Source: an uncultured Candidatus Saccharibacteria bacterium
GTDB lineage: Bacteria > Patescibacteriota > Minisyncoccia > Minisyncoccales > JAGGXC01
Direction of reading: 5' to 3'
Length of the DNA stretch: 56,388 nucleotides
NCBI GenBank assembly: GCA_964607015.1
Contig: CAZSHN010000002.1
Span: 1-56,388, forward strand
The notes beneath the pieces were generated by a model. That model searched no databases. It had not been told where the DNA came from and saw only the letters and a list, made by a program, of their open reading frames with translations. The translations under genes and the position numbers were made by a program. Numbering within the stretch: position 1 is the stretch's first letter; each line of letters opens with the position of its first letter. Positions 3,806 through 9,809 of this stretch are shown here, one piece after another.

Positions 3806-3896
3806 CTTACCACTCCCTATTTACAATGTTCTATAATAATATTAATATTTTAAACTTTAATTTTCAAGTAAATCTTAATTAATGAACTAACTTTAT

Positions 3897-4364
3897 TTAA
3901 TTTTCTGATTCTTCTGCCAAAATATGAAAATGAAGATAATTTACTGTTTGATAAGAAGGACCATTTGTATAGACTTTGTATTCCCTGAGACCTGCCTCTC
4001 TAATAATTTCACCAATCACCGCATAAGAATCAGCAAGATATTCTTTATCTTCCTGAGTAAGGTCAGCTATATCTTTTATATCTTTCTTAGGAATTATTAC
4101 ATAATGAATAGGAGCTCTATGAATAGGAGAATCTATAGCTATTGTCTTATCTGTTTCTTTTACAATTGAAGGAATTAATTCTGGAGATTTCTGAGCAACA
4201 ACAGATCCGATTAATCCCAATAATTCATTTGACTCTAGACAAGTTTCATCGCAATCATCAAATCTCAAAAAAGACCTTGGTTGAGTGTCTCTAAAAATAT
4301 ATCCTCCAATTATTATTCCAACAAAAAGAATAAACAATGAAATAACAATCTTTTTAATTTTCAT
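3897..4364 (-). CDS. HIT-family nucleotide hydrolase/transferase with N-terminal membrane anchor
   Basis: 155 aa. N-terminal TM segment (IVISLFILFVGIIIGGYIF). C-terminal histidine-triad region NYLHFHIL, in which the first His of HxHxHxx is Tyr. Confidence 0.7.
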   Translation of the reverse strand: MKIKKIVISLFILFVGIIIGGYIFRDTQPRSFLRFDDCDETCLESNELLGLIGSVVAQKSPELIPSIVKETDKTIAIDSPIHRAPIHYVIIPKKDIKDIADLTQEDKEYLADSYAVIGEIIREAGLREYKVYTNGPSYQTVNYLHFHILAEESEN

Positions 4365-4725
4365 GCCTCAATCTTAATTTTAAATTATATATTTCATTTT
4401 ATCAGAAAATAAATATTAAATAAAAAAAGACCCTACTAAAACCATCTCTTTACTCAATATGTTTCTAATTAGAAATCTGTCAAAATAGTAAATATTCAAA
4501 CTTTATGTTTTGTTATAAATCAATATTTTGCAATTTCAATTAACGAAAAAAGCAAGTCAAGTTCATTGCAGATGAAGTACTTTCAACAAGAATATTTTTC
4601 CACAAAATTTATCCTGCTAAAACAGATAATACAGTTAAAAAACGTTTCCAAATCATGCCAATTCTTACTTAGTCTTTGTATATTTCTATGATCCGATTTT
4701 AAATTCTTAACAGATTGCTCTAAAA

Positions 4726-5430
4726 TTATTTTTTCTTCAGAGTATCAATTCTTTCCATTACTTCCTCTGCAGAATCAACCAATTGATATATATCTAAATT
4801 TTCCTTTTTAATCGACTTATGCTTTAAGTAAACCTCTGACTTAATAAATTTAAATAAAGGTTTCCAATATTCTTCTCCAACAGCAATAATAGGAACCGGT
4901 CTTGCTAACTTTCCTGTTTGAACAAGCGTAATCATCTCAAAAAATTCATCTAACGTTCCAAATCCACCAGGAAAAAAGATATATGCCTCGGAAGAAAAAG
5001 AAAGCATTACCTTTCGAGTAAAAAAATGATTAAATCCAATTGGCTTATCAACATAAGCATTCATTCTTTGTCCTTCTGGAAGCTGAACGTTTATTCCTAC
5101 CGATTCTCCTCCTGACTCAAGAGCGCCACGATTAGCTGCTTCCATAATACCTGGCCCACCACCAGTAATTACAGTATATCCCTTTTCAGCCAAAAGATTG
5201 CCCAGTTTTCTTGATTCCTTATAGTAATGATTGCTAGGTAAAAAACTGCTTGAACCGAAAATAGTAATAGTTTTTTTAAGATCAGCAAGAAAATGATATC
5301 CATCAATAAATTCCGCCATGATCCTGAAAATTTTCCATTGAAACGTTTCTCTAAAATCTTCTTTAGTTGATGGTAATTCAGGATCTGGATATAAATTCTT
5401 TTCTCTAGCCTTTTTGTTTATTTTTGCCAT
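4726..5430 (-). CDS. LOG-family / TIGR00730 Rossmann-fold nucleotide-binding protein (cytokinin riboside 5'-monophosphate phosphoribohydrolase-like)
   Basis: GGGPGIMEAANRGA and PGGFGTLDEFFE signature motifs. Confidence 0.85.
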   Translation of the reverse strand: MAKINKKAREKNLYPDPELPSTKEDFRETFQWKIFRIMAEFIDGYHFLADLKKTITIFGSSSFLPSNHYYKESRKLGNLLAEKGYTVITGGGPGIMEAANRGALESGGESVGINVQLPEGQRMNAYVDKPIGFNHFFTRKVMLSFSSEAYIFFPGGFGTLDEFFEMITLVQTGKLARPVPIIAVGEEYWKPLFKFIKSEVYLKHKSIKKENLDIYQLVDSAEEVMERIDTLKKK

Positions 5431-5568
5431 GTTTTTTGTTTTATATTACCACAAAAGAAAAAGTTTGAAAAAAAGAAATTAAATCCTAAGACTATTCTTC
5501 TATAATTTCTTTAATAAAAACTACTTCTTTTACAGTTTATTTTTAAAAAATAAATTCATACTGAATAA

Positions 5569-6045
5569 TTACCAGCAAGTTGCTCCACCCTGATCAAGCT
5601 CTCCCGAGGGTTCGTCCTCTAAGTAGCTAGTCCCTTTTTCACTAGCAGCAAAAAAACCACCCTGTTCTAATTCAGCCCAAATACAATATTTATTTTCAGC
5701 ATAACGATTTCTTAAACAGCAGTAATTCTCACCTTTTTCGTCATTGCAATTTCCACTTCCTCCCCCCGGATCCTTTGGTAAAGGATATAAATAAGGAGAA
5801 AACATCATCTCTGAATCAAGGCCTATCCTATTCTCAGCATCCGGTTCCGTCCAAAAATATTCATCTTCTTCATCGTATATCATTTCCATAGCCAAACTTA
5901 TTTGTTTAATATCAGATTTTCTTTTTGCGTCTCTAGCCTTCCCTCTTGCTTCGCTCAAAGAAACTAAGGCAATCGAAGCCAAGACGCCAATAATTGCAAC
6001 AACTACTAGTAATTCAATTAGTGTAAAACCTTTCTGTATTTTCAT
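5569..6045 (-). CDS. Type IV pilin / pseudopilin (prepilin-type N-terminal cleavage-methylation domain)
   Basis: N-terminus MKIQKG|FTLIELLVVVAIIGVLASIAL. Cys-containing C-terminal globular part. Confidence 0.8.
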   Translation of the reverse strand: MKIQKGFTLIELLVVVAIIGVLASIALVSLSEARGKARDAKRKSDIKQISLAMEMIYDEEDEYFWTEPDAENRIGLDSEMMFSPYLYPLPKDPGGGSGNCNDEKGENYCCLRNRYAENKYCIWAELEQGGFFAASEKGTSYLEDEPSGELDQGGATCW

Positions 6046-6051
6046 TTTTTT

Positions 6052-6060
6052 ATTATACCA
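6052..6060 (-). promoter_or_regulatory. Extended -10 box TGGTATAAT, 6 nt upstream of the pilin ATG (candidate leaderless start)
   Basis: Minus strand reads TTTTTTGGTATAAT-AAAAAA-ATG with no Shine-Dalgarno sequence. Confidence 0.45.
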
Positions 6061-6241
6061 AAAAATCTTATAAAAAAACTTTAAAAATTTTTAAATACTA
6101 AAGCTGTAACCAGAAAAATATTTTTTAAATTAATTTTTTTCAAAGAAAAATAAAAAATCATATTCGTTTCTAAAAACTTCTTCATTAATAAAATTTTTCT
6201 TTGTTTTAAATTATTAAAATTATTATATAAATTATTCTCGC

Positions 6242-6272
6242 AAAAAAATAACGCGCCGCAGCCCCGGCGCGT
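6242..6272 (-). terminator. GC-rich rho-independent terminator after ORF 6330..6995
   Basis: Minus strand reads ACGCGCCG-GGGCTG-CGGCGCGT (8-bp perfect stem) followed by TATTTTTTTG. Confidence 0.8.
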
Positions 6273-6329
6273 CAATTTTATCAAGCGAGAAAGATCATGT
6301 CACCTCGAGTATTAACTGGATATCCTTTA

Positions 6330-6995
6330 TTAATAGTAAATAACATCCGCCTCACTTTTCAGTCGTTCTACTAGTTTTCCAATTTCTTCCTGTTGTTTTT
6401 CTTGCTCAAGAAATTGAATTATTTGAGGCTCTACTTCTTCGTATGAAGGCATTTCCTCTTCTGATTGCTGACTATACTCTTCATAAAAAGTTATAGCCTC
6501 TTCTTCGGTTATCTCAAAATCCTTCCCACTAAGAAAGTCTGTTAGGTAATCTTGAGTGGCTACCTGCTTTCTATAATTTTCTACTTCTTCTTCGTAAGAA
6601 GCATCCTGCTCTTCAAGTTCCTGTTTAAATTCATCTAAGCTAGAACCTTGTTCAGAAAGCTGACGACTTATCTTCTCTTCCACCTCTTGCTCTGTAGGAA
6701 CATAATCTTCCTTCTCTGCTTTCTGATATAATACTTCTTGACTTATGAGCTCTTCTAACACTTCTTCTTCAGATATTTCTTGTCCTTGAGATTCAAATAC
6801 CTTTTTCATGTCTGTTACTTCTTCAGATTTTATCTCTTGACCATTAACAGTTGCCCGAATCCCATCAGCTTCTCCTTTTTCAAGATCAACAGAGACTTTT
6901 TCATTAATATTGTTAGTTTCACTAAAAACAAATATGCCACCAGCTACTATAATTATTACAACAATTAATCCAATAATAAGATTTTTCTTTTTCAT
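6330..6995 (-). CDS. Membrane-anchored SurA-N-terminal-like chaperone domain protein, very acidic
   Basis: 221 aa. N-terminal TM, then the ATVNGQEIKSEEV...EELISQEVLYQKAEKEDY pattern seen in SurA_N/PrsA-like proteins. No PPIase domain is visible. Confidence 0.45.
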   Translation of the reverse strand: MKKKNLIIGLIVVIIIVAGGIFVFSETNNINEKVSVDLEKGEADGIRATVNGQEIKSEEVTDMKKVFESQGQEISEEEVLEELISQEVLYQKAEKEDYVPTEQEVEEKISRQLSEQGSSLDEFKQELEEQDASYEEEVENYRKQVATQDYLTDFLSGKDFEITEEEAITFYEEYSQQSEEEMPSYEEVEPQIIQFLEQEKQQEEIGKLVERLKSEADVIYY

Positions 6996-7129
6996 AATTA
7001 ATTATTAATTAATTTCACATTTTTATTTATAACCTTTTGTATTTTTGCAGGATAACAAATACTGTTGACTATGTAAAATTATACACCCAGAAGAAGAAAA
7101 ATATTTAATAATTTATTTTTATTATATAA

Positions 7130-7157
7130 TTGACTTTTATGATTAATATGTTATAAT
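7130..7157 (+). promoter_or_regulatory. Sigma70-type promoter for ORF 7230..7631
   Basis: TTGACT (7130-7135), 16-nt spacer ending TGt, TATAAT (7152-7157). Followed by an 8-bp 5'-UTR hairpin ATCCTAAG/CTTAGGAT (7188-7207) and an AAGGAG SD. Confidence 0.55.
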
Positions 7158-7229
7158 GAAGAAGTAAAAAATCTATAATTTTTTACCATCCTAAGTAATC
7201 TTAGGATAAAAAAATAAGGAGTGTTGAAA

Positions 7230-7631
7230 ATGGAAGAAACCGATAAGAAAGTTAAAGAAAATATAGATCTAGAAAAAGAAAAAGAAGAGATAAGCAGATT
7301 ATTAAATACTCGTGCTTACCAGGTTGAAAAAATAAGAAAAGAACTATCGGAGCCTAAGGGCTTTCTTCAGAAAAAATGTCCAAAATGCGGAGAAAAACTA
7401 TGGGGTGGTCGTTTAAACTCGTACTATAAATATTTTATATGTATTCATTGTTTTTACGACTATTCTAAACTAATAAAATTTTCTCTCCCGAACTTATTAA
7501 AGAACTTCATTCACCCTGTTTACAGCAAAGAATTTCTGGATTTTTTGTTCAAGGAAGAAAGAGTGGTAAACATAAAAGAAATCTGTCACAGACTTACAGA
7601 GATTAAAAGAAAAGAAAAATCTTCAATATAG
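7230..7631 (+). CDS. Hypothetical protein with CPKCGEK...CIHC zinc-ribbon motif
   Basis: The track ORF starts at GTG 7221. I prefer ATG 7230 because AAGGAG lies 8 nt upstream. No family recognised. Confidence 0.5.
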   Translation: MEETDKKVKENIDLEKEKEEISRLLNTRAYQVEKIRKELSEPKGFLQKKCPKCGEKLWGGRLNSYYKYFICIHCFYDYSKLIKFSLPNLLKNFIHPVYSKEFLDFLFKEERVVNIKEICHRLTEIKRKEKSSI

Positions 7632-7686
7632 GCTTTTGATTTATTCTAATCTTAAGCCTCTTTTTTTTAAACTTATAGAAAGTTTT

Positions 7687-7717
7687 AATAAAAAGCACAC
7701 CAGCAGTCCCGGCGCGC
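7687..7717 (-). terminator. Orphan GC-rich hairpin + T-tract on the minus strand, related to the 6242..6272 terminator
   Basis: Minus strand reads GCGCGCCGG-GACTG-CTGGTGTGC (9 pairs including G.U) followed by TTTTTATT. There is no minus-strand ORF upstream of it. Confidence 0.45.
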
Positions 7718-7749
7718 GAAAATCTCTAAGCGAGGAAGAGTGTACTTGC

Positions 7750-7775
7750 GTGCTGCGATACTAGGATTCGAACCT
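7750..7775 (-). repeat. Fragment copy of the tRNA-Gln 3' end (T-arm + 3' acceptor strand), att-like direct repeat
   Basis: gtgctgcgatactaggattcgaacct here versus gtgctgcgggactaggattcgaacct at 9736..9761, 24/26 identical and in the same orientation. No D or anticodon arm adjoins it. Confidence 0.7.
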
Positions 7776-7817
7776 TATTCTGTTCGCACTACTGATATAG
7801 GATATTTTTAGGTTCGT

Positions 7818-7845
7818 TTGCATTTAAAAAAATACATGCTATATT
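7818..7845 (+). promoter_or_regulatory. Sigma70-type promoter for the GNAT-ASCH gene
   Basis: TTGCAT, 16-nt spacer ending TGc, TATATT. The roughly 100-nt leader holds two hairpins (CAGGAA/TTCCTG and TATCTCT/AGAGATA) and an AAGGAG SD. Confidence 0.5.
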
Positions 7846-7951
7846 AATCTAGATTCAGGAAGTCTTGAATTCCTGTAAACAGTTCTTTTAAAATTAATGA
7901 GTTACACATATCTCTCTTAGAGATAGTAGCTCGGCAAAGGAGAAGAAAAAA

Positions 7952-9304
7952 ATGGAAAATAAGAAAGCAATAATTAGAAAAGCTCGAAAAGGAGACTTTG
8001 AATGGATTAAAAACCTGATGCAGGACGCTTTAGAACCTTACTATGGAGGAGATCATAAAGCACACGCAAAACGTATATTCAATGCTCATATTAAAGGAGG
8101 CATTGATCGAATTGGATTTTTCTCTTTTGAACAACGCATGTTTGTCGCAGAAGTTAATAACCAGATCGCTGGAATGATCCATTTAGTTGGAAAACGTCAA
8201 TCAACATACAAGATTAGCCCACTCATCGTTTCACCTAAATTTCGAGGATGCCTAGGGATAGGAAGCAGACTTTTGTATTTTGCTGAAAAATATGCAAGAA
8301 AAAACCAGGCACGCCAACTATATTGTACTGTAGCAAAGCAAAATATTGCATCCCTGCAATTTTTCCTTCGCAAGGGGTTCATTCAAGCAGGAAGCTCTGA
8401 AAGCCATTACAAAAATGGCATAACAGAAACAATGCTCTACAAGCCATTGTACGGAATAAGTAAAATAACATCCTTAGATCAACTTCATGTATCTGTTCTG
8501 CCATTTGACGAAAAAAACACTGGCATAAAAGAGCAAATTGAAAGATTGTTGCTGGGAAAACTTCAGAATTCTTTTGAAGGAATTACCGATGAATGGGTTC
8601 GTGCCCTTTTTGACGGTTACAGTCGGAGAAACAGTAAAGACATTAACACAAAATACAAGCTTATTTACGTAGCCACAGATAGTACAGGAAGAGTCATTGG
8701 TATAGTCGGGGCAACACCGAAAAAAGGAAGTCCAATTAAGATAATGCCTTTTATTGCAACAAATATAGTTGCCTTCGAAGCACTATTAATCGATCTTCCC
8801 TATCAATTGGCCCGATACGGTCATAAACTTTACATTCATCTTAATCCGAGTTCAGACGAAGTTGTTTCCCTCCAAAGACTTGGATGGAAATTAGATGCAG
8901 TAATGCCTGCGGCATATCATCAAAATATTATCACTCAACAATGGAGCTTGGATGTAGGAGAAGGTACCATGAGAACAATGAGAGTAAAAAGAAGGTTTTT
9001 TAACCTAATAAAGTCAGAAGCAAAAACGCTGGAAGTTCGTGTTCGATACAAAAACATTGACCGAATTCAAGCAGGAGAAATTATTTCCTTGGTCACGCAT
9101 AACGAGAGTATGAAAATAAAAGTAAAAAATGTTCGACACTATCACAGTTTCGAACAAATGCTCCAAAGAGAACCATGGGAAAAAATAGCCCCAGAATTAA
9201 ATTCCAAAGAAGAGGTTTTTTCTTTGTTAAAACAAATATATCCTTACCGCAAAGAAAAACTTGGTGTTGTAGTTTTCGAGTTTTCTCGTCCTAGCAACAT
9301 TTAA
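7952..9304 (+). CDS. Three-domain protein: GNAT N-acetyltransferase + degenerate second GNAT-like domain + C-terminal ASCH (PUA-like) domain
   Basis: 450 aa. Residues 1-165 hold GNAT motif A (IVSPKFRGCLGIGSRLLYFAEKYA). Residues ~175-335 are GNAT-like without the acetyl-CoA motif. Residues ~340-450 show the ASCH pattern (TLEVRV...IQAGEIISL...HYHSFEQML...SKEE...IYP...GVVVFEF). Confidence 0.7.
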   Translation: MENKKAIIRKARKGDFEWIKNLMQDALEPYYGGDHKAHAKRIFNAHIKGGIDRIGFFSFEQRMFVAEVNNQIAGMIHLVGKRQSTYKISPLIVSPKFRGCLGIGSRLLYFAEKYARKNQARQLYCTVAKQNIASLQFFLRKGFIQAGSSESHYKNGITETMLYKPLYGISKITSLDQLHVSVLPFDEKNTGIKEQIERLLLGKLQNSFEGITDEWVRALFDGYSRRNSKDINTKYKLIYVATDSTGRVIGIVGATPKKGSPIKIMPFIATNIVAFEALLIDLPYQLARYGHKLYIHLNPSSDEVVSLQRLGWKLDAVMPAAYHQNIITQQWSLDVGEGTMRTMRVKRRFFNLIKSEAKTLEVRVRYKNIDRIQAGEIISLVTHNESMKIKVKNVRHYHSFEQMLQREPWEKIAPELNSKEEVFSLLKQIYPYRKEKLGVVVFEFSRPSNI

Positions 9305-9317
9305 GATTGCCTCAAAT

Positions 9318-9352
9318 GTCCAGTGAGCTCATATAGCAACTGGACTTTTTTT
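9318..9352 (+). terminator. Rho-independent terminator of the GNAT-ASCH gene
   Basis: GTCCAGT-14 nt-ACTGGAC followed by TTTTTTTAT. It overlaps the stop codon of the convergent ASCH gene. Confidence 0.65.
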
Positions 9353-9692
9353 ATTTAACTAACTCTATTTTTATACCAACAGCATTATATTTCTGCTGTT
9401 CTTCTTTTGAGTAAAATTTATTAACTTCTTTAATTAGTTCTTCTTTTGAGTTTCCGCCAAATTTTTCCGGAGGAAAATCAGAAAAAAGTTCTTCAAAAGA
9501 ACTGTAGAGATAAATAGCCTTTACTTTCGTTAATATTTTTTGAGAAGAATCGTCTTTGTAAGTAAATTCAATTTGGTCACCAACACTAATCCTTTGACGT
9601 TTTTCGTCATACAACCTAGACTCAATATTTTTATTACTACTAACAACCTTCCTAAAAGGAATGGCAGCTAATTTCATTTGGTGTTTTGTCAT
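9351..9692 (-). CDS. Stand-alone ASCH-domain protein
   Basis: 113 aa. Pattern MKLAAIPFRKV...NIESRLYDEKRQRISVGDQIEF...YSSFEELF...SKEE...FYSKEEQQKYNAVGIKIEL. Same subfamily pattern as the C-terminus of 7952..9304. Confidence 0.7.
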   Translation of the reverse strand: MTKHQMKLAAIPFRKVVSSNKNIESRLYDEKRQRISVGDQIEFTYKDDSSQKILTKVKAIYLYSSFEELFSDFPPEKFGGNSKEELIKEVNKFYSKEEQQKYNAVGIKIELVK

Positions 9693-9738
9693 ATTTTTAA
9701 TTAAAAAATTAATTCCTCTCAGTTTCTCAAACCGTGTG

Positions 9739-9809
9739 CTGCGGGACTAGGATTCGAACCTAGATAGACAGCTCCAAAAGCTGTTGTCCTACCATTAGAC
9801 GATCCCGCA
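9739..9809 (-). tRNA. tRNA-Gln (anticodon UUG)
   Basis: Hand-folded cloverleaf: acceptor TGCGGGA/TCCCGCA (U1-A72), U8, D-stem GTCT/GGAC with GG in the loop, anticodon stem ACAGC/GCTGT, loop TTTTGGA, T-arm CTAGG-TTCGAAT-CCTAG, discriminator G. CCA is not encoded. Confidence 0.85.

Follow-up and report, generated by a model that had tools for sequence, protein, structure and literature searches.

Operons combining a (PIN)-GNAT-EVE protein with an ASCH protein were reportedly predicted by Iyer et al. in 2013. A later survey by Bell et al. 2020, which was computational only, found them in mobile, variable neighbourhoods and proposed that they acetylate bases or aminoacyl-tRNA in a toxin-antitoxin (TA) or defence role (PMC7641849). 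Here we describe a related arrangement in a 56,388-nucleotide stretch of DNA (hereafter the window, 32.5% GC) from an uncultured Candidatus Saccharibacteria bacterium (contig CAZSHN010000002.1), where a fusion of two GNAT domains and an ASCH domain (ASCH-B) is encoded convergently with a stand-alone ASCH protein (ASCH-A). The (PIN)-GNAT-EVE + ASCH operons are the nearest described system, with the design held in common but not the domains. In both, a GNAT carries a C-terminal PUA-like, modified-base-binding domain and a separate ASCH protein is encoded nearby; here, however, the fused domain is ASCH and not EVE, the GNAT is tandem and its second copy degenerate, a PIN domain and an AAA_17 partner are both absent, and the occurrence is mainly in the Candidate Phyla Radiation (CPR) rather than in proteobacterial prophages or archaeal restriction-modification loci. 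The first-pass annotation of the window had recognised no precedent for the architecture and its partner, a view that the computational description of GNAT-EVE fusions with a separate ASCH does not sustain (PMC7641849). A special kinship of the first GNAT domain with that of PIN-GNAT-EVE was considered and rejected, the similarity being generic only (hhalign probability 23%).

The ASCH components can be compared with enzymes of known activity. YqfB is an N4-acetylcytidine (ac4C) amidohydrolase with the residues Lys21, Thr24, Arg26 and Glu74 (PMC6972931), and a recent preprint reports that all 19 of the 19 ASCH proteins tested remove ac4C from tRNA in vitro, the Glu-type ASCH proteins of Thermus and Pyrococcus kukulkanii among them, that most of those tested also hydrolyse free ac4C, and that the Lys and Glu of the motif form an essential dyad (10.64898/2026.02.27.708502). 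Our two modules share the Pfam ASCH domain and the octapeptide G-K-x-x-x-E-x-R with these erasers (YqfB, TthASCH, the Pyrococcus and Archaeoglobus proteins, and EOLA1) and lie close to the solved PH0355, PF0455 and PF0469, although no enzyme tested there is linked to an acetyltransferase. Archaeal ParB-CTPase-ASCH fusions have also been noted (PMC12704722).

On the acetyltransferase side, TmcA, NAT10 and TmcAL resemble the unit in the acetyl transfer to cytidine N4 that we propose for it, and TmcA and NAT10 have a GNAT catalytic domain, but the fusion is much smaller and lacks their DUF1726, helicase/ATPase and tRNA-binding tail, and TmcAL is synthetase-like and unrelated to it. DarT-DarG likewise joins a base-marking enzyme to a neighbouring eraser enzyme (here predicted) in an accessory, mobile module, but it acts by ADP-ribosylation of thymidine in single-stranded DNA, and its folds are unrelated. 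In the GNAT-RHH TA systems (TacAT, AtaRT, ItaRT) a single-domain toxin of ~170 amino acids (aa) is paired with an upstream DUF1778/RHH gene, as opposed to a 450-aa three-domain protein paired with an ASCH. No Pfam or NCBIfam family, PADLOC model or descriptive paper specific to this family was found. In PADLOC-DB 2.0 the fusion gives only a marginal match of its GNAT region to the candidate PDC-M11A (E 2e-4) and ASCH-A none, and Pfam detects no DUF1778/RHH, DUF1726, helicase/ATPase, tRNA-binding or EVE domain in the pair; membership of a known defence or TA family was rejected for want of real PADLOC, Pfam or NCBIfam support.

The tandem GNAT-ASCH fusion and its ASCH-A neighbour

The two genes and their domains are arranged as follows:

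7952-9304, plus strand: fusion open reading frame (ORF), 450 aa, composed of GNAT1, GNAT2 and ASCH-B
7952-8455 (residues 1-168), plus strand: GNAT1, acetyltransferase domain, Pfam E 1.1e-15
8474-8956 (residues 175-335), plus strand: GNAT2, assigned from its AlphaFold2 (AF2) fold, Foldseek matches to tandem GNATs, and alignment
8969-9289 (residues 340-446), plus strand: ASCH-B, Pfam ASCH, PF0469-like (EVRVxY)
9351-9692, minus strand: ASCH-A, stand-alone ASCH, 113 aa, PF0455/PH0355-like (RLYDEKR)

Profile searches, structure prediction and alignment together bear out the first-pass picture of a three-module fusion that ends in an ASCH domain, has a GNAT-like middle module without an acetyl-CoA motif, and faces a protein consisting of an ASCH module only, with a sequence pattern common to the two ASCH modules. 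Acetyltransf_1 (PF00583, CL0257) matches residues 46-143 with 58.3 bits against a cut-off of 20.7, and the alignment shows the acetyl-CoA loop of GNAT1 to be intact: motif A, IVSPKFRGCLGIGSRLL, occupies residues 92-108, and G99, G102 and G104 show little or no variation. The acceptor-side motif PYYGGDHxAHAxRI is highly conserved, and the GNAT1 motifs recur in tandem GNATs of the MazG type described below and in stand-alone ones. Four longer homologues (P0200, P0201, P0203 and P0224) have N-terminal extensions in which no Pfam domain is found.

The middle of the fusion (~175-335) has no match in the Pfam profile search. An AF2 model built on 29 homologues (pLDDT 85) nonetheless gives residues 181-334 the complete GNAT order b1-a1-a2-b2-b3-b4-a3-b5-a4-b6-b7, and the top full-length Foldseek matches of the fusion are the solved tandem GNATs 2wpw (clavulanate pathway), 5kgh (C. 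acetobutylicum glucosamine N-acetyltransferase), 3n7z (Eis-like) and 6wqb (VipF). These likewise have two GNAT folds per chain, but they are only 9-15% identical, no ASCH or MazG module is annotated in them, and their substrates are unrelated to nucleotides. In the alignment the loop after strand 4 of GNAT2 (269-275) has no glycine-rich Q/RxxGxG/A motif, and the basic motifs KYK (234-236) and TPKKG (255-259) are invariant. Because AF2 and Foldseek indicate a GNAT fold and the glycine motif is missing, GNAT2 is best described as a GNAT-like fold without the acetyl-CoA motif, and the model suggests that it is a pseudo- or degenerate GNAT.

Both ASCH modules are matched by PF04266 well above the cut-off of 21.2 bits, ASCH-B over residues 344-445 of the fusion (E 9.2e-9, 36.4 bits) and ASCH-A over residues 12-113 (E 4.6e-10, 40.6 bits), and the two are 29% identical to each other (E 4e-8). 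The solved Pyrococcus ASCH structures 2z0t, 1s04 and 1xne are matched by both. ASCH-A has the signature 'ESRLYDEKR' as in Pyrococcus PH0355/PF0455, and ASCH-B the signature 'EVRVxY' as in Pyrococcus PF0469; the median isoelectric point is strongly basic for the ASCH-B family (9.8) and near neutral for that of ASCH-A (7.4). ASCH-B-like domains are also found fused to single GNATs. For ASCH-A, gene callers prefer an internal start at 9677, giving 108 aa, and its gene contains a perfect 15-nucleotide (nt) direct repeat, GTTCTTCTTTTGAGT, at 9398-9412 and 9437-9451, encoding two 'SKEE' motifs.

The octapeptide G-K-x-x-x-[E/T/S]-x-R is present in both paralogues, and its Lys, Glu and Arg are invariant in all aligned homologues (K358/E361/R363 in ASCH-B; K21/E24/R26 in ASCH-A). 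The position of Thr24 in YqfB is a Glu in both. Since both keep Lys, Glu and Arg with Glu at this position, they are predicted to be of the Glu type ('GKER') and not the YqfB type, and from these residues both paralogues look catalytic. The link between ASCH domains and ac4C, drawn in the first-pass annotation by way of YqfB, is thus strengthened by the preprint and by the invariant residues, but the YqfB comparison itself does not carry over, as Thr is replaced by Glu in both copies.

Conservation of the pair and loss of the fusion

Homologues of the fusion are numerous. A word-indexed search returned 609, the best 120 at 62-88% identity, an exhaustive search returned 812 representatives with E < 1e-3, and the species-representative genomes hold at least 142 loci with a fusion relative. 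Identity to the fusion is 48-73% across CPR classes and 50-56% to proteins from contigs of 53-62% GC; the genes around the pair are most closely related to genes of CPR/Patescibacteria metagenome assemblies. We clustered the neighbouring ORFs of 81 distinct related loci (within L001-L085) all against all, and the fusion and ASCH-A are the sole neighbours common across lineages, all other clusters being confined to close relatives. Chance adjacency was rejected, since across 79 loci these are the only two genes that co-cluster.

An ASCH-A neighbour is present at 67 of the 76 evaluable loci, in three gene orders. The convergent order of the window occurs at 27 loci, mostly metagenome-assembled genomes (MAGs) labelled as Parcubacteria-type groups, at 62-73% identity; the order ASCH-A>fusion> on one strand at 35 loci (Saccharibacteria, Berkelbacteria and Levyibacteriota) at 48-56% identity; and the order fusion>ASCH-A> at five. 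At four further loci (L094-L097) the system is split into three genes encoding ASCH-A (114 aa), a tandem GNAT (326 aa) and ASCH-B (108 aa), so that it can be regarded as a tandem GNAT with two distinct ASCH paralogues. The association has therefore survived inversion, reordering and gene fission, which is strong evidence that the fusion and ASCH-A are functionally linked. Most intact fusions adjoin ASCH-A, and in CPR-labelled MAGs all evaluable ones do. Counted from the side of ASCH-A, 70 evaluable loci divide into 33 with a fusion nearby, 6 with parts of one, and 31 with none. At four loci (L126, L139, L142, L143) tblastn covers only fusion residues 8-344 beside ASCH-A, possibly reflecting split versions or frameshifts.

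Selection on the fusion is strong. The ratio of non-synonymous to synonymous substitution rates (dN/dS) is 0.06-0.09 against the closest intact homologues (0.061 against locus L105), and by domain it is 0.068 for GNAT1, 0.035 for GNAT2, the most constrained, and 0.086 for ASCH-B. ASCH-A has a dN/dS of 0.10-0.26, and purifying selection persists where the fusion is gone, which implies a use for ASCH-A independent of the fusion.

The fusion is nevertheless dispensable. In the closest relatives of the window, L086 and L087 (~82% nucleotide identity, with the synteny CysS-GtrA-DnaX-phosphodiesterase-tRNA-Gln-ASCH-A), it has been cut by a deletion between two 'SFEQ' repeats to an in-frame remnant of 87 aa, and ASCH-A is intact. 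The repeat involved in L086 is short and comparable to the 'SKEE' repeat inside the ASCH-A gene of the window. In a different neighbourhood, L090, the last ~100 codons of the fusion are left beside an intact ASCH-A. Among cultivated oral Saccharibacteria, the Nanosynbacter strains TM7-008 (whose genome is complete), TM7-076 and TM7-075 match TM7-053 at 92-95% identity through the end of ASCH-A, and the match resumes 3 kb further on; the segment they lack (L074 3897-6866, compared with L145/L138/L153) contains the fusion and three small genes of 71, 169 and 139 aa. In TM7-075, two of the three small genes are located elsewhere in the locus. The fusion is thus highly constrained yet accessory. 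An essential housekeeping role, as might be read from the identities of 62-88%, was rejected for the fusion in view of the deletions in close relatives and the presence/absence in Nanosynbacter. In the Southlakia epibionticum Tn-seq supplementary tables that we examined, 'ASCH' was not found, so these give no information on essentiality.

A cassette at tRNA-Gln

Comparison with relatives defines the unit in the window as a 1.9-kb cassette (~7821-9706) immediately 3' of tRNA-Gln, with the following features around and between the two genes:

7695-7717, minus strand: hairpin and T-run, a 9-pair stem with 6 G-C, then TTTTTATT
7750-7775, minus strand: tRNA-Gln 3' fragment (T-arm and acceptor 3' strand), the left repeat, 24/26 identical to 9736-9761
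7821-7951, plus strand: leader/promoter region travelling with the cassette; homology starts at 7831 (L105) and 7821 (L108)
9318-9353, unstranded: hairpin with a U-run where the two genes converge, terminator-like for the fusion and common to both genes
9738-9809, minus strand: intact tRNA-Gln(UUG), with the right direct repeat formed by its 3' end (9736-9761)

The window and L105, where the fusion is 88% identical, are homologous at the nucleotide level over 7831-9706 only; the flanks are unrelated and a tRNA-Asn stands where the window has tRNA-Gln. Homology to L108 starts at 7821, homology to L090 ends at 9706, and homology to L086 breaks within the tRNA fragment at 7750-7775. On the strand that encodes ASCH-A, 45 nt separate that gene from the tRNA-Gln upstream of it. 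The hairpin at 7695-7717 lies ~30 nt downstream of the tRNA fragment on the minus strand and is GC-rich relative to the 32.5% GC of the window; by its position and sequence it looks like the original terminator of tRNA-Gln (7717-7695), now orphaned. This layout of tRNA-Gln, displaced 3' fragment and hairpin is as expected for insertion into the 3' end of tRNA-Gln, and the islet beside a tRNA that was noticed at first inspection finds support, with limits that the comparison with relatives bears out. No recombinase is encoded inside the cassette, and an integrase-free unit of this size at tRNA genes bears on gene flow in the CPR.

The association with tRNA genes and flanking repeats extends to other loci. 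Of 63 loci, 6 have exact flanking matches 17 nt or more in length, as against 1 of 99 shifted same-locus controls and 0 of 311 cross-locus controls. At L010 (3779-3876, 5908-6005) two 98-nt copies, 100% identical and each with a whole tRNA-Leu(GAG), bracket the pair, and repeats of 17-32 nt flank it at several other loci. The pair at L018 (3882-3968, 5790-5876) is flanked by an 85/87 direct repeat carrying a promoter-like TTGACA...TAGATAAT and a hairpin; because a shifted same-locus control gave an 88-nt match, this repeat is not strong evidence and is possibly a multi-copy intergenic element. A tRNA is present within 300 nt upstream of ASCH-A at at least 8 of 67 loci, in addition to the window and L105, where we roughly estimate that <1% would be expected by chance. 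Between the window and L087 the cassette is 89-93% identical and the flanks 77-85%, with a synonymous divergence (dS) of 0.28 for ASCH-A as against 0.8-1.6, which suggests recent exchange.

The fusion and ASCH-A are separated by 46 nt, and the shared terminator region reported at first inspection corresponds to the hairpin at 9318-9345, followed on the plus strand by a U7 run (z = -2.5 for one strand and -3.3 for the other). The leader has promoter-like hexamers at 7817-7845 and 7865-7894 and a predicted fold with z = -2.9. An Rfam search of the leader and intergenic region matched only tRNA, and a regulatory RNA in either was rejected. Carriage of the module by phage was likewise rejected, as IMG/VR gave one match at a contig end and two Streptomyces phages gave ASCH-like 'RNA-binding proteins' only.

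Several neighbouring features were also observed. A 3.3-kb segment of the window (4431-7769), encoding a LOG-family protein, a pilin-like protein, an acidic protein of 221 aa and a Cys-rich ORF of 136 aa, is not in L086, which is otherwise syntenic; there, the counterpart of window 3891-4430 comes ~60 nt after a remnant of the fusion leader. On its right, the segment is bounded by the tRNA-Gln 3' fragment. The 136-aa ORF (7221-7631, CxxC...CxxC) has marginal zinc-ribbon matches, and no homologue was seen in related loci. At L108, where the fusion is 85% identical, the left neighbour of the cassette (124-729) combines HTH_3 with SocA_Panacea, a combination seen in antitoxins.

Candidate functions of the pair

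Homologues and neighbours that lack ASCH provide clues to the substrate. In the tandem GNATs P0222, P0252 and P0254, which share with the fusion family the signature motifs PYYxGDHxAH, KRQGTxKISP, ARQLYCTV, ATPKKG and TQQW, a MazG-like/dUTPase_2 C-terminal domain stands in place of ASCH-B. P0252 (L093) is followed by an overlapping gene of the nucleoside 2-deoxyribosyltransferase (NDT) family (Nuc_deoxyrib_tr), and P0254 (L099/L100 4001-9126) is the first member of an operon that continues with genes for a DegT/DnrJ/EryC1 aminotransferase, a GT4 glycosyltransferase, a methyltransferase and an NDT-like protein, with ABC-F, TetR and MFS genes divergent beside it. This operon, which we take to resemble cytosine-nucleoside antibiotic clusters, may serve nucleoside-type secondary metabolism or resistance. 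P0217, a tandem GNAT alone (L102), lies between a P-loop kinase-like and a dCTP-deaminase-like protein (DCD, E 2.8e-5), with a Ham1 gene on the opposite strand and an AAA_28 gene nearby. Besides the dCTP-deaminase-like gene, the region concerned (6069-8041 and 5049-5699) encodes a protein of 488 aa that weakly matches PIN_3, GNAT and EVE and one of 172 aa that weakly matches ASCH; the latter two seem to resemble PIN-GNAT-EVE + ASCH, and the neighbourhood may perhaps be defence-island-like. A MazG gene neighbours the fusion at L042. The partner enzymes are of kinds that bind pyrimidine nucleosides and nucleotides, above all those of cytosine, or hydrolyse them. By guilt by association, the MazG exchange together with the NDT-like and dCTP-deaminase-like neighbours suggests that the substrate is a nucleoside or nucleotide of cytosine, or else cytidine within RNA. 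Since a MazG-like pyrophosphohydrolase can replace ASCH-B, a role in nucleoside or nucleotide chemistry is at least as likely as RNA targeting. The fused ASCH, which the first-pass annotation had cast as a module aiming the acetyltransferase at its target, is therefore not obviously passive, as it also keeps the catalytic motif.

The reading that we favour, tentatively and at somewhat less than even chances, is that the unit is a writer and eraser of reversible cytosine N-acetylation. GNAT1 would acetylate the exocyclic amine of cytosine with acetyl-CoA, either on a free cytidine or deoxycytidine nucleoside or nucleotide or on cytidine in RNA; GNAT2 would be a non-catalytic, basic copy that binds the substrate or a partner; ASCH-B would recognise cytosine or nucleic acid, and might also be hydrolytic; and ASCH-A would hydrolyse the N4-acetyl-cytosine product as an eraser or safeguard. 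The substrate, the directions of the reactions and the counteraction of the fusion by ASCH-A are what we infer here from the architecture, motifs and associations described above.

Several points weigh against this reading. The activity of ASCH proteins as a group comes from a preprint whose 19 proteins do not include the present family and whose Pyrococcus constructs could not be mapped onto PF0455/PF0469. The named relatives of GNAT1 are weak and generic (RimI, streptothricin, sugar and polyamine acetyltransferases). A writer fused to an ASCH with an eraser motif is awkward, as ASCH-B could undo the product of GNAT1. ASCH-A is not adjacent to six fusions from MAGs without a CPR label (L038, L041, L042, L049, L050 and L055), whose contigs range from 32-62% in GC. 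The MazG, NDT and DCD contexts come from few loci, with some Pfam scores under the gathering thresholds.

Were reversible cytosine acetylation to hold, it would bear on two current questions: what provides most prokaryotes with the substrate of ASCH proteins, whose role as ac4C erasers is a very recent proposal, and whether the mark is truly reversible in cells. An acetyltransferase coupled both physically and genetically to two ASCH paralogues in hundreds of genomes is a candidate writer wired to erasers. If the substrate is a free cytosine nucleotide, the pair would define nucleotide-pool chemistry of a new kind in salvage-dependent organisms. The cultivated Nanosynbacter strains that differ in the fusion at one locus, with 92-95% identity around it, are a natural test case, and Saccharibacteria are genetically tractable (PMC10633639).

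One alternative is that the pair is a DarTG-like toxin-antidote or defence module, in which the fusion would arrest growth, for example upon phage infection, by acetylating the cytosine of nucleotides, RNA or DNA, with ASCH-A as the antidote. If the fusion is toxic, this would be a new type of reversible-modification toxin-antidote. The behaviour of the cassette is in keeping with such a module: homology to L105, L108 and L090 that stops at its limits amid unrelated flanks and beside a different tRNA (Asn), the flanking repeats and nearby tRNAs, and the greater similarity of cassette than flanks to L087. So too is the asymmetry between the genes, with the fusion lost and ASCH-A kept in two independent deletions and in the strain-level absence from Nanosynbacter, and with ASCH-A beside every evaluable intact fusion in CPR-labelled MAGs; in addition, one homologue, at L102, lies beside the PIN-GNAT-EVE + ASCH-like pair and the dCTP-deaminase-like gene. 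Known TA and defence models are unmatched, however, the fusion is far better conserved than a conflict gene would be expected to be (48-73% across CPR classes, and 50-56% to genomes of 53-62% GC), and the module is essentially missing from phage and viral collections. Fusions also exist without an adjacent ASCH-A, ASCH-A is maintained by selection without the fusion and hence has its own use, and the motif of the supposed antidote is kept in ASCH-B within the putative toxin itself. The toxin-antidote pair put forward at first inspection draws only on the asymmetric pattern of presence and absence, and nothing of GNAT-toxin, DUF1778/RHH or PADLOC type was matched. We regard a DarTG-like role as rather unlikely. 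The more ambitious claim that the tandem GNATs are a new, ATP-independent class of cytosine N4-acetyltransferase with an architecture unlike that of TmcA/NAT10, forming with ASCH deacetylases a mobile, tRNA-landing cassette that serves as a DarTG-like toxin-antidote or defence system of the CPR, acting reversibly on cytosine nucleotides, RNA or DNA, seems to us similarly doubtful.

A second possibility, to which we give comparably modest weight, is that the tandem GNAT acetylates and so inactivates a toxic nucleoside or nucleotide of cytosine type, or a nucleoside antibiotic, in the course of pool sanitation, salvage or antibiotic detoxification, and that the ASCH, MazG and NDT proteins are parallel hydrolases that clear modified cytosine nucleotides taken from the host, with no writer-eraser tie to it. 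CPR bacteria depend on salvage, and the partners of the tandem GNATs (MazG-like, Nuc_deoxyrib_tr, DCD-like, Ham1 and P-loop kinases) form a house-cleaning set; the P0254 operon, with its aminotransferase, glycosyltransferase, methyltransferase and NDT-like genes near ABC-F, TetR and MFS, is in keeping with detoxification. ASCH-A is common alone, like the general ac4C salvage enzyme YqfB (PMC6972931). The asymmetry of the pair, in which the fusion wants ASCH-A and ASCH-A is independent, fits a general salvage enzyme that would also process the product of the fusion and a DarTG-like antidote alike. The near-constant adjacency of ASCH-A, the presence of two ASCH paralogues and the behaviour as a tRNA-linked cassette are left unexplained, and the NCBIfam search gave no nucleoside-antibiotic resistance family above cut-off.

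We consider it very unlikely that the fusion is a housekeeping enzyme of RNA modification, a CPR substitute for TmcA/TmcAL that places ac4C on tRNA or rRNA, where ASCH-B would hold the RNA and ASCH-A would remove the mark under regulation. The basic character of ASCH-B, the deacetylation of tRNA by ASCH proteins in vitro, the frequent tRNA neighbours and the very strong sequence constraint would all be accommodated. A housekeeping ac4C writer is nonetheless made improbable by the variation of the fusion among Nanosynbacter strains that are 92-95% identical at the locus, and the fusion is deleted in the closest relatives of the window. The adjoining tRNAs are also varied (Gln, Asn, Leu, Val, Glu and Arg), a diversity more in line with sites of insertion than with substrates, and the exchange of MazG for ASCH points to free nucleotides.

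Slightly less probable still is a RimI-like protein N-acetyltransferase with the ASCH modules as mere RNA- or ribosome-docking adaptors, for although the best NCBIfam match of GNAT1 is RimI (E 2.9e-8, far under the family cut-off) and the RimI-type structure 9mto is among the matches, such scores are generic for GNATs, and the ASCH catalytic motif, the second ASCH paralogue and the MazG, NDT and DCD contexts would have no explanation. In public records, the proteins are named 'GNAT family N-acetyltransferase', 'ASC-1-like (ASCH) protein/RimI-like enzyme' or 'hypothetical protein'.

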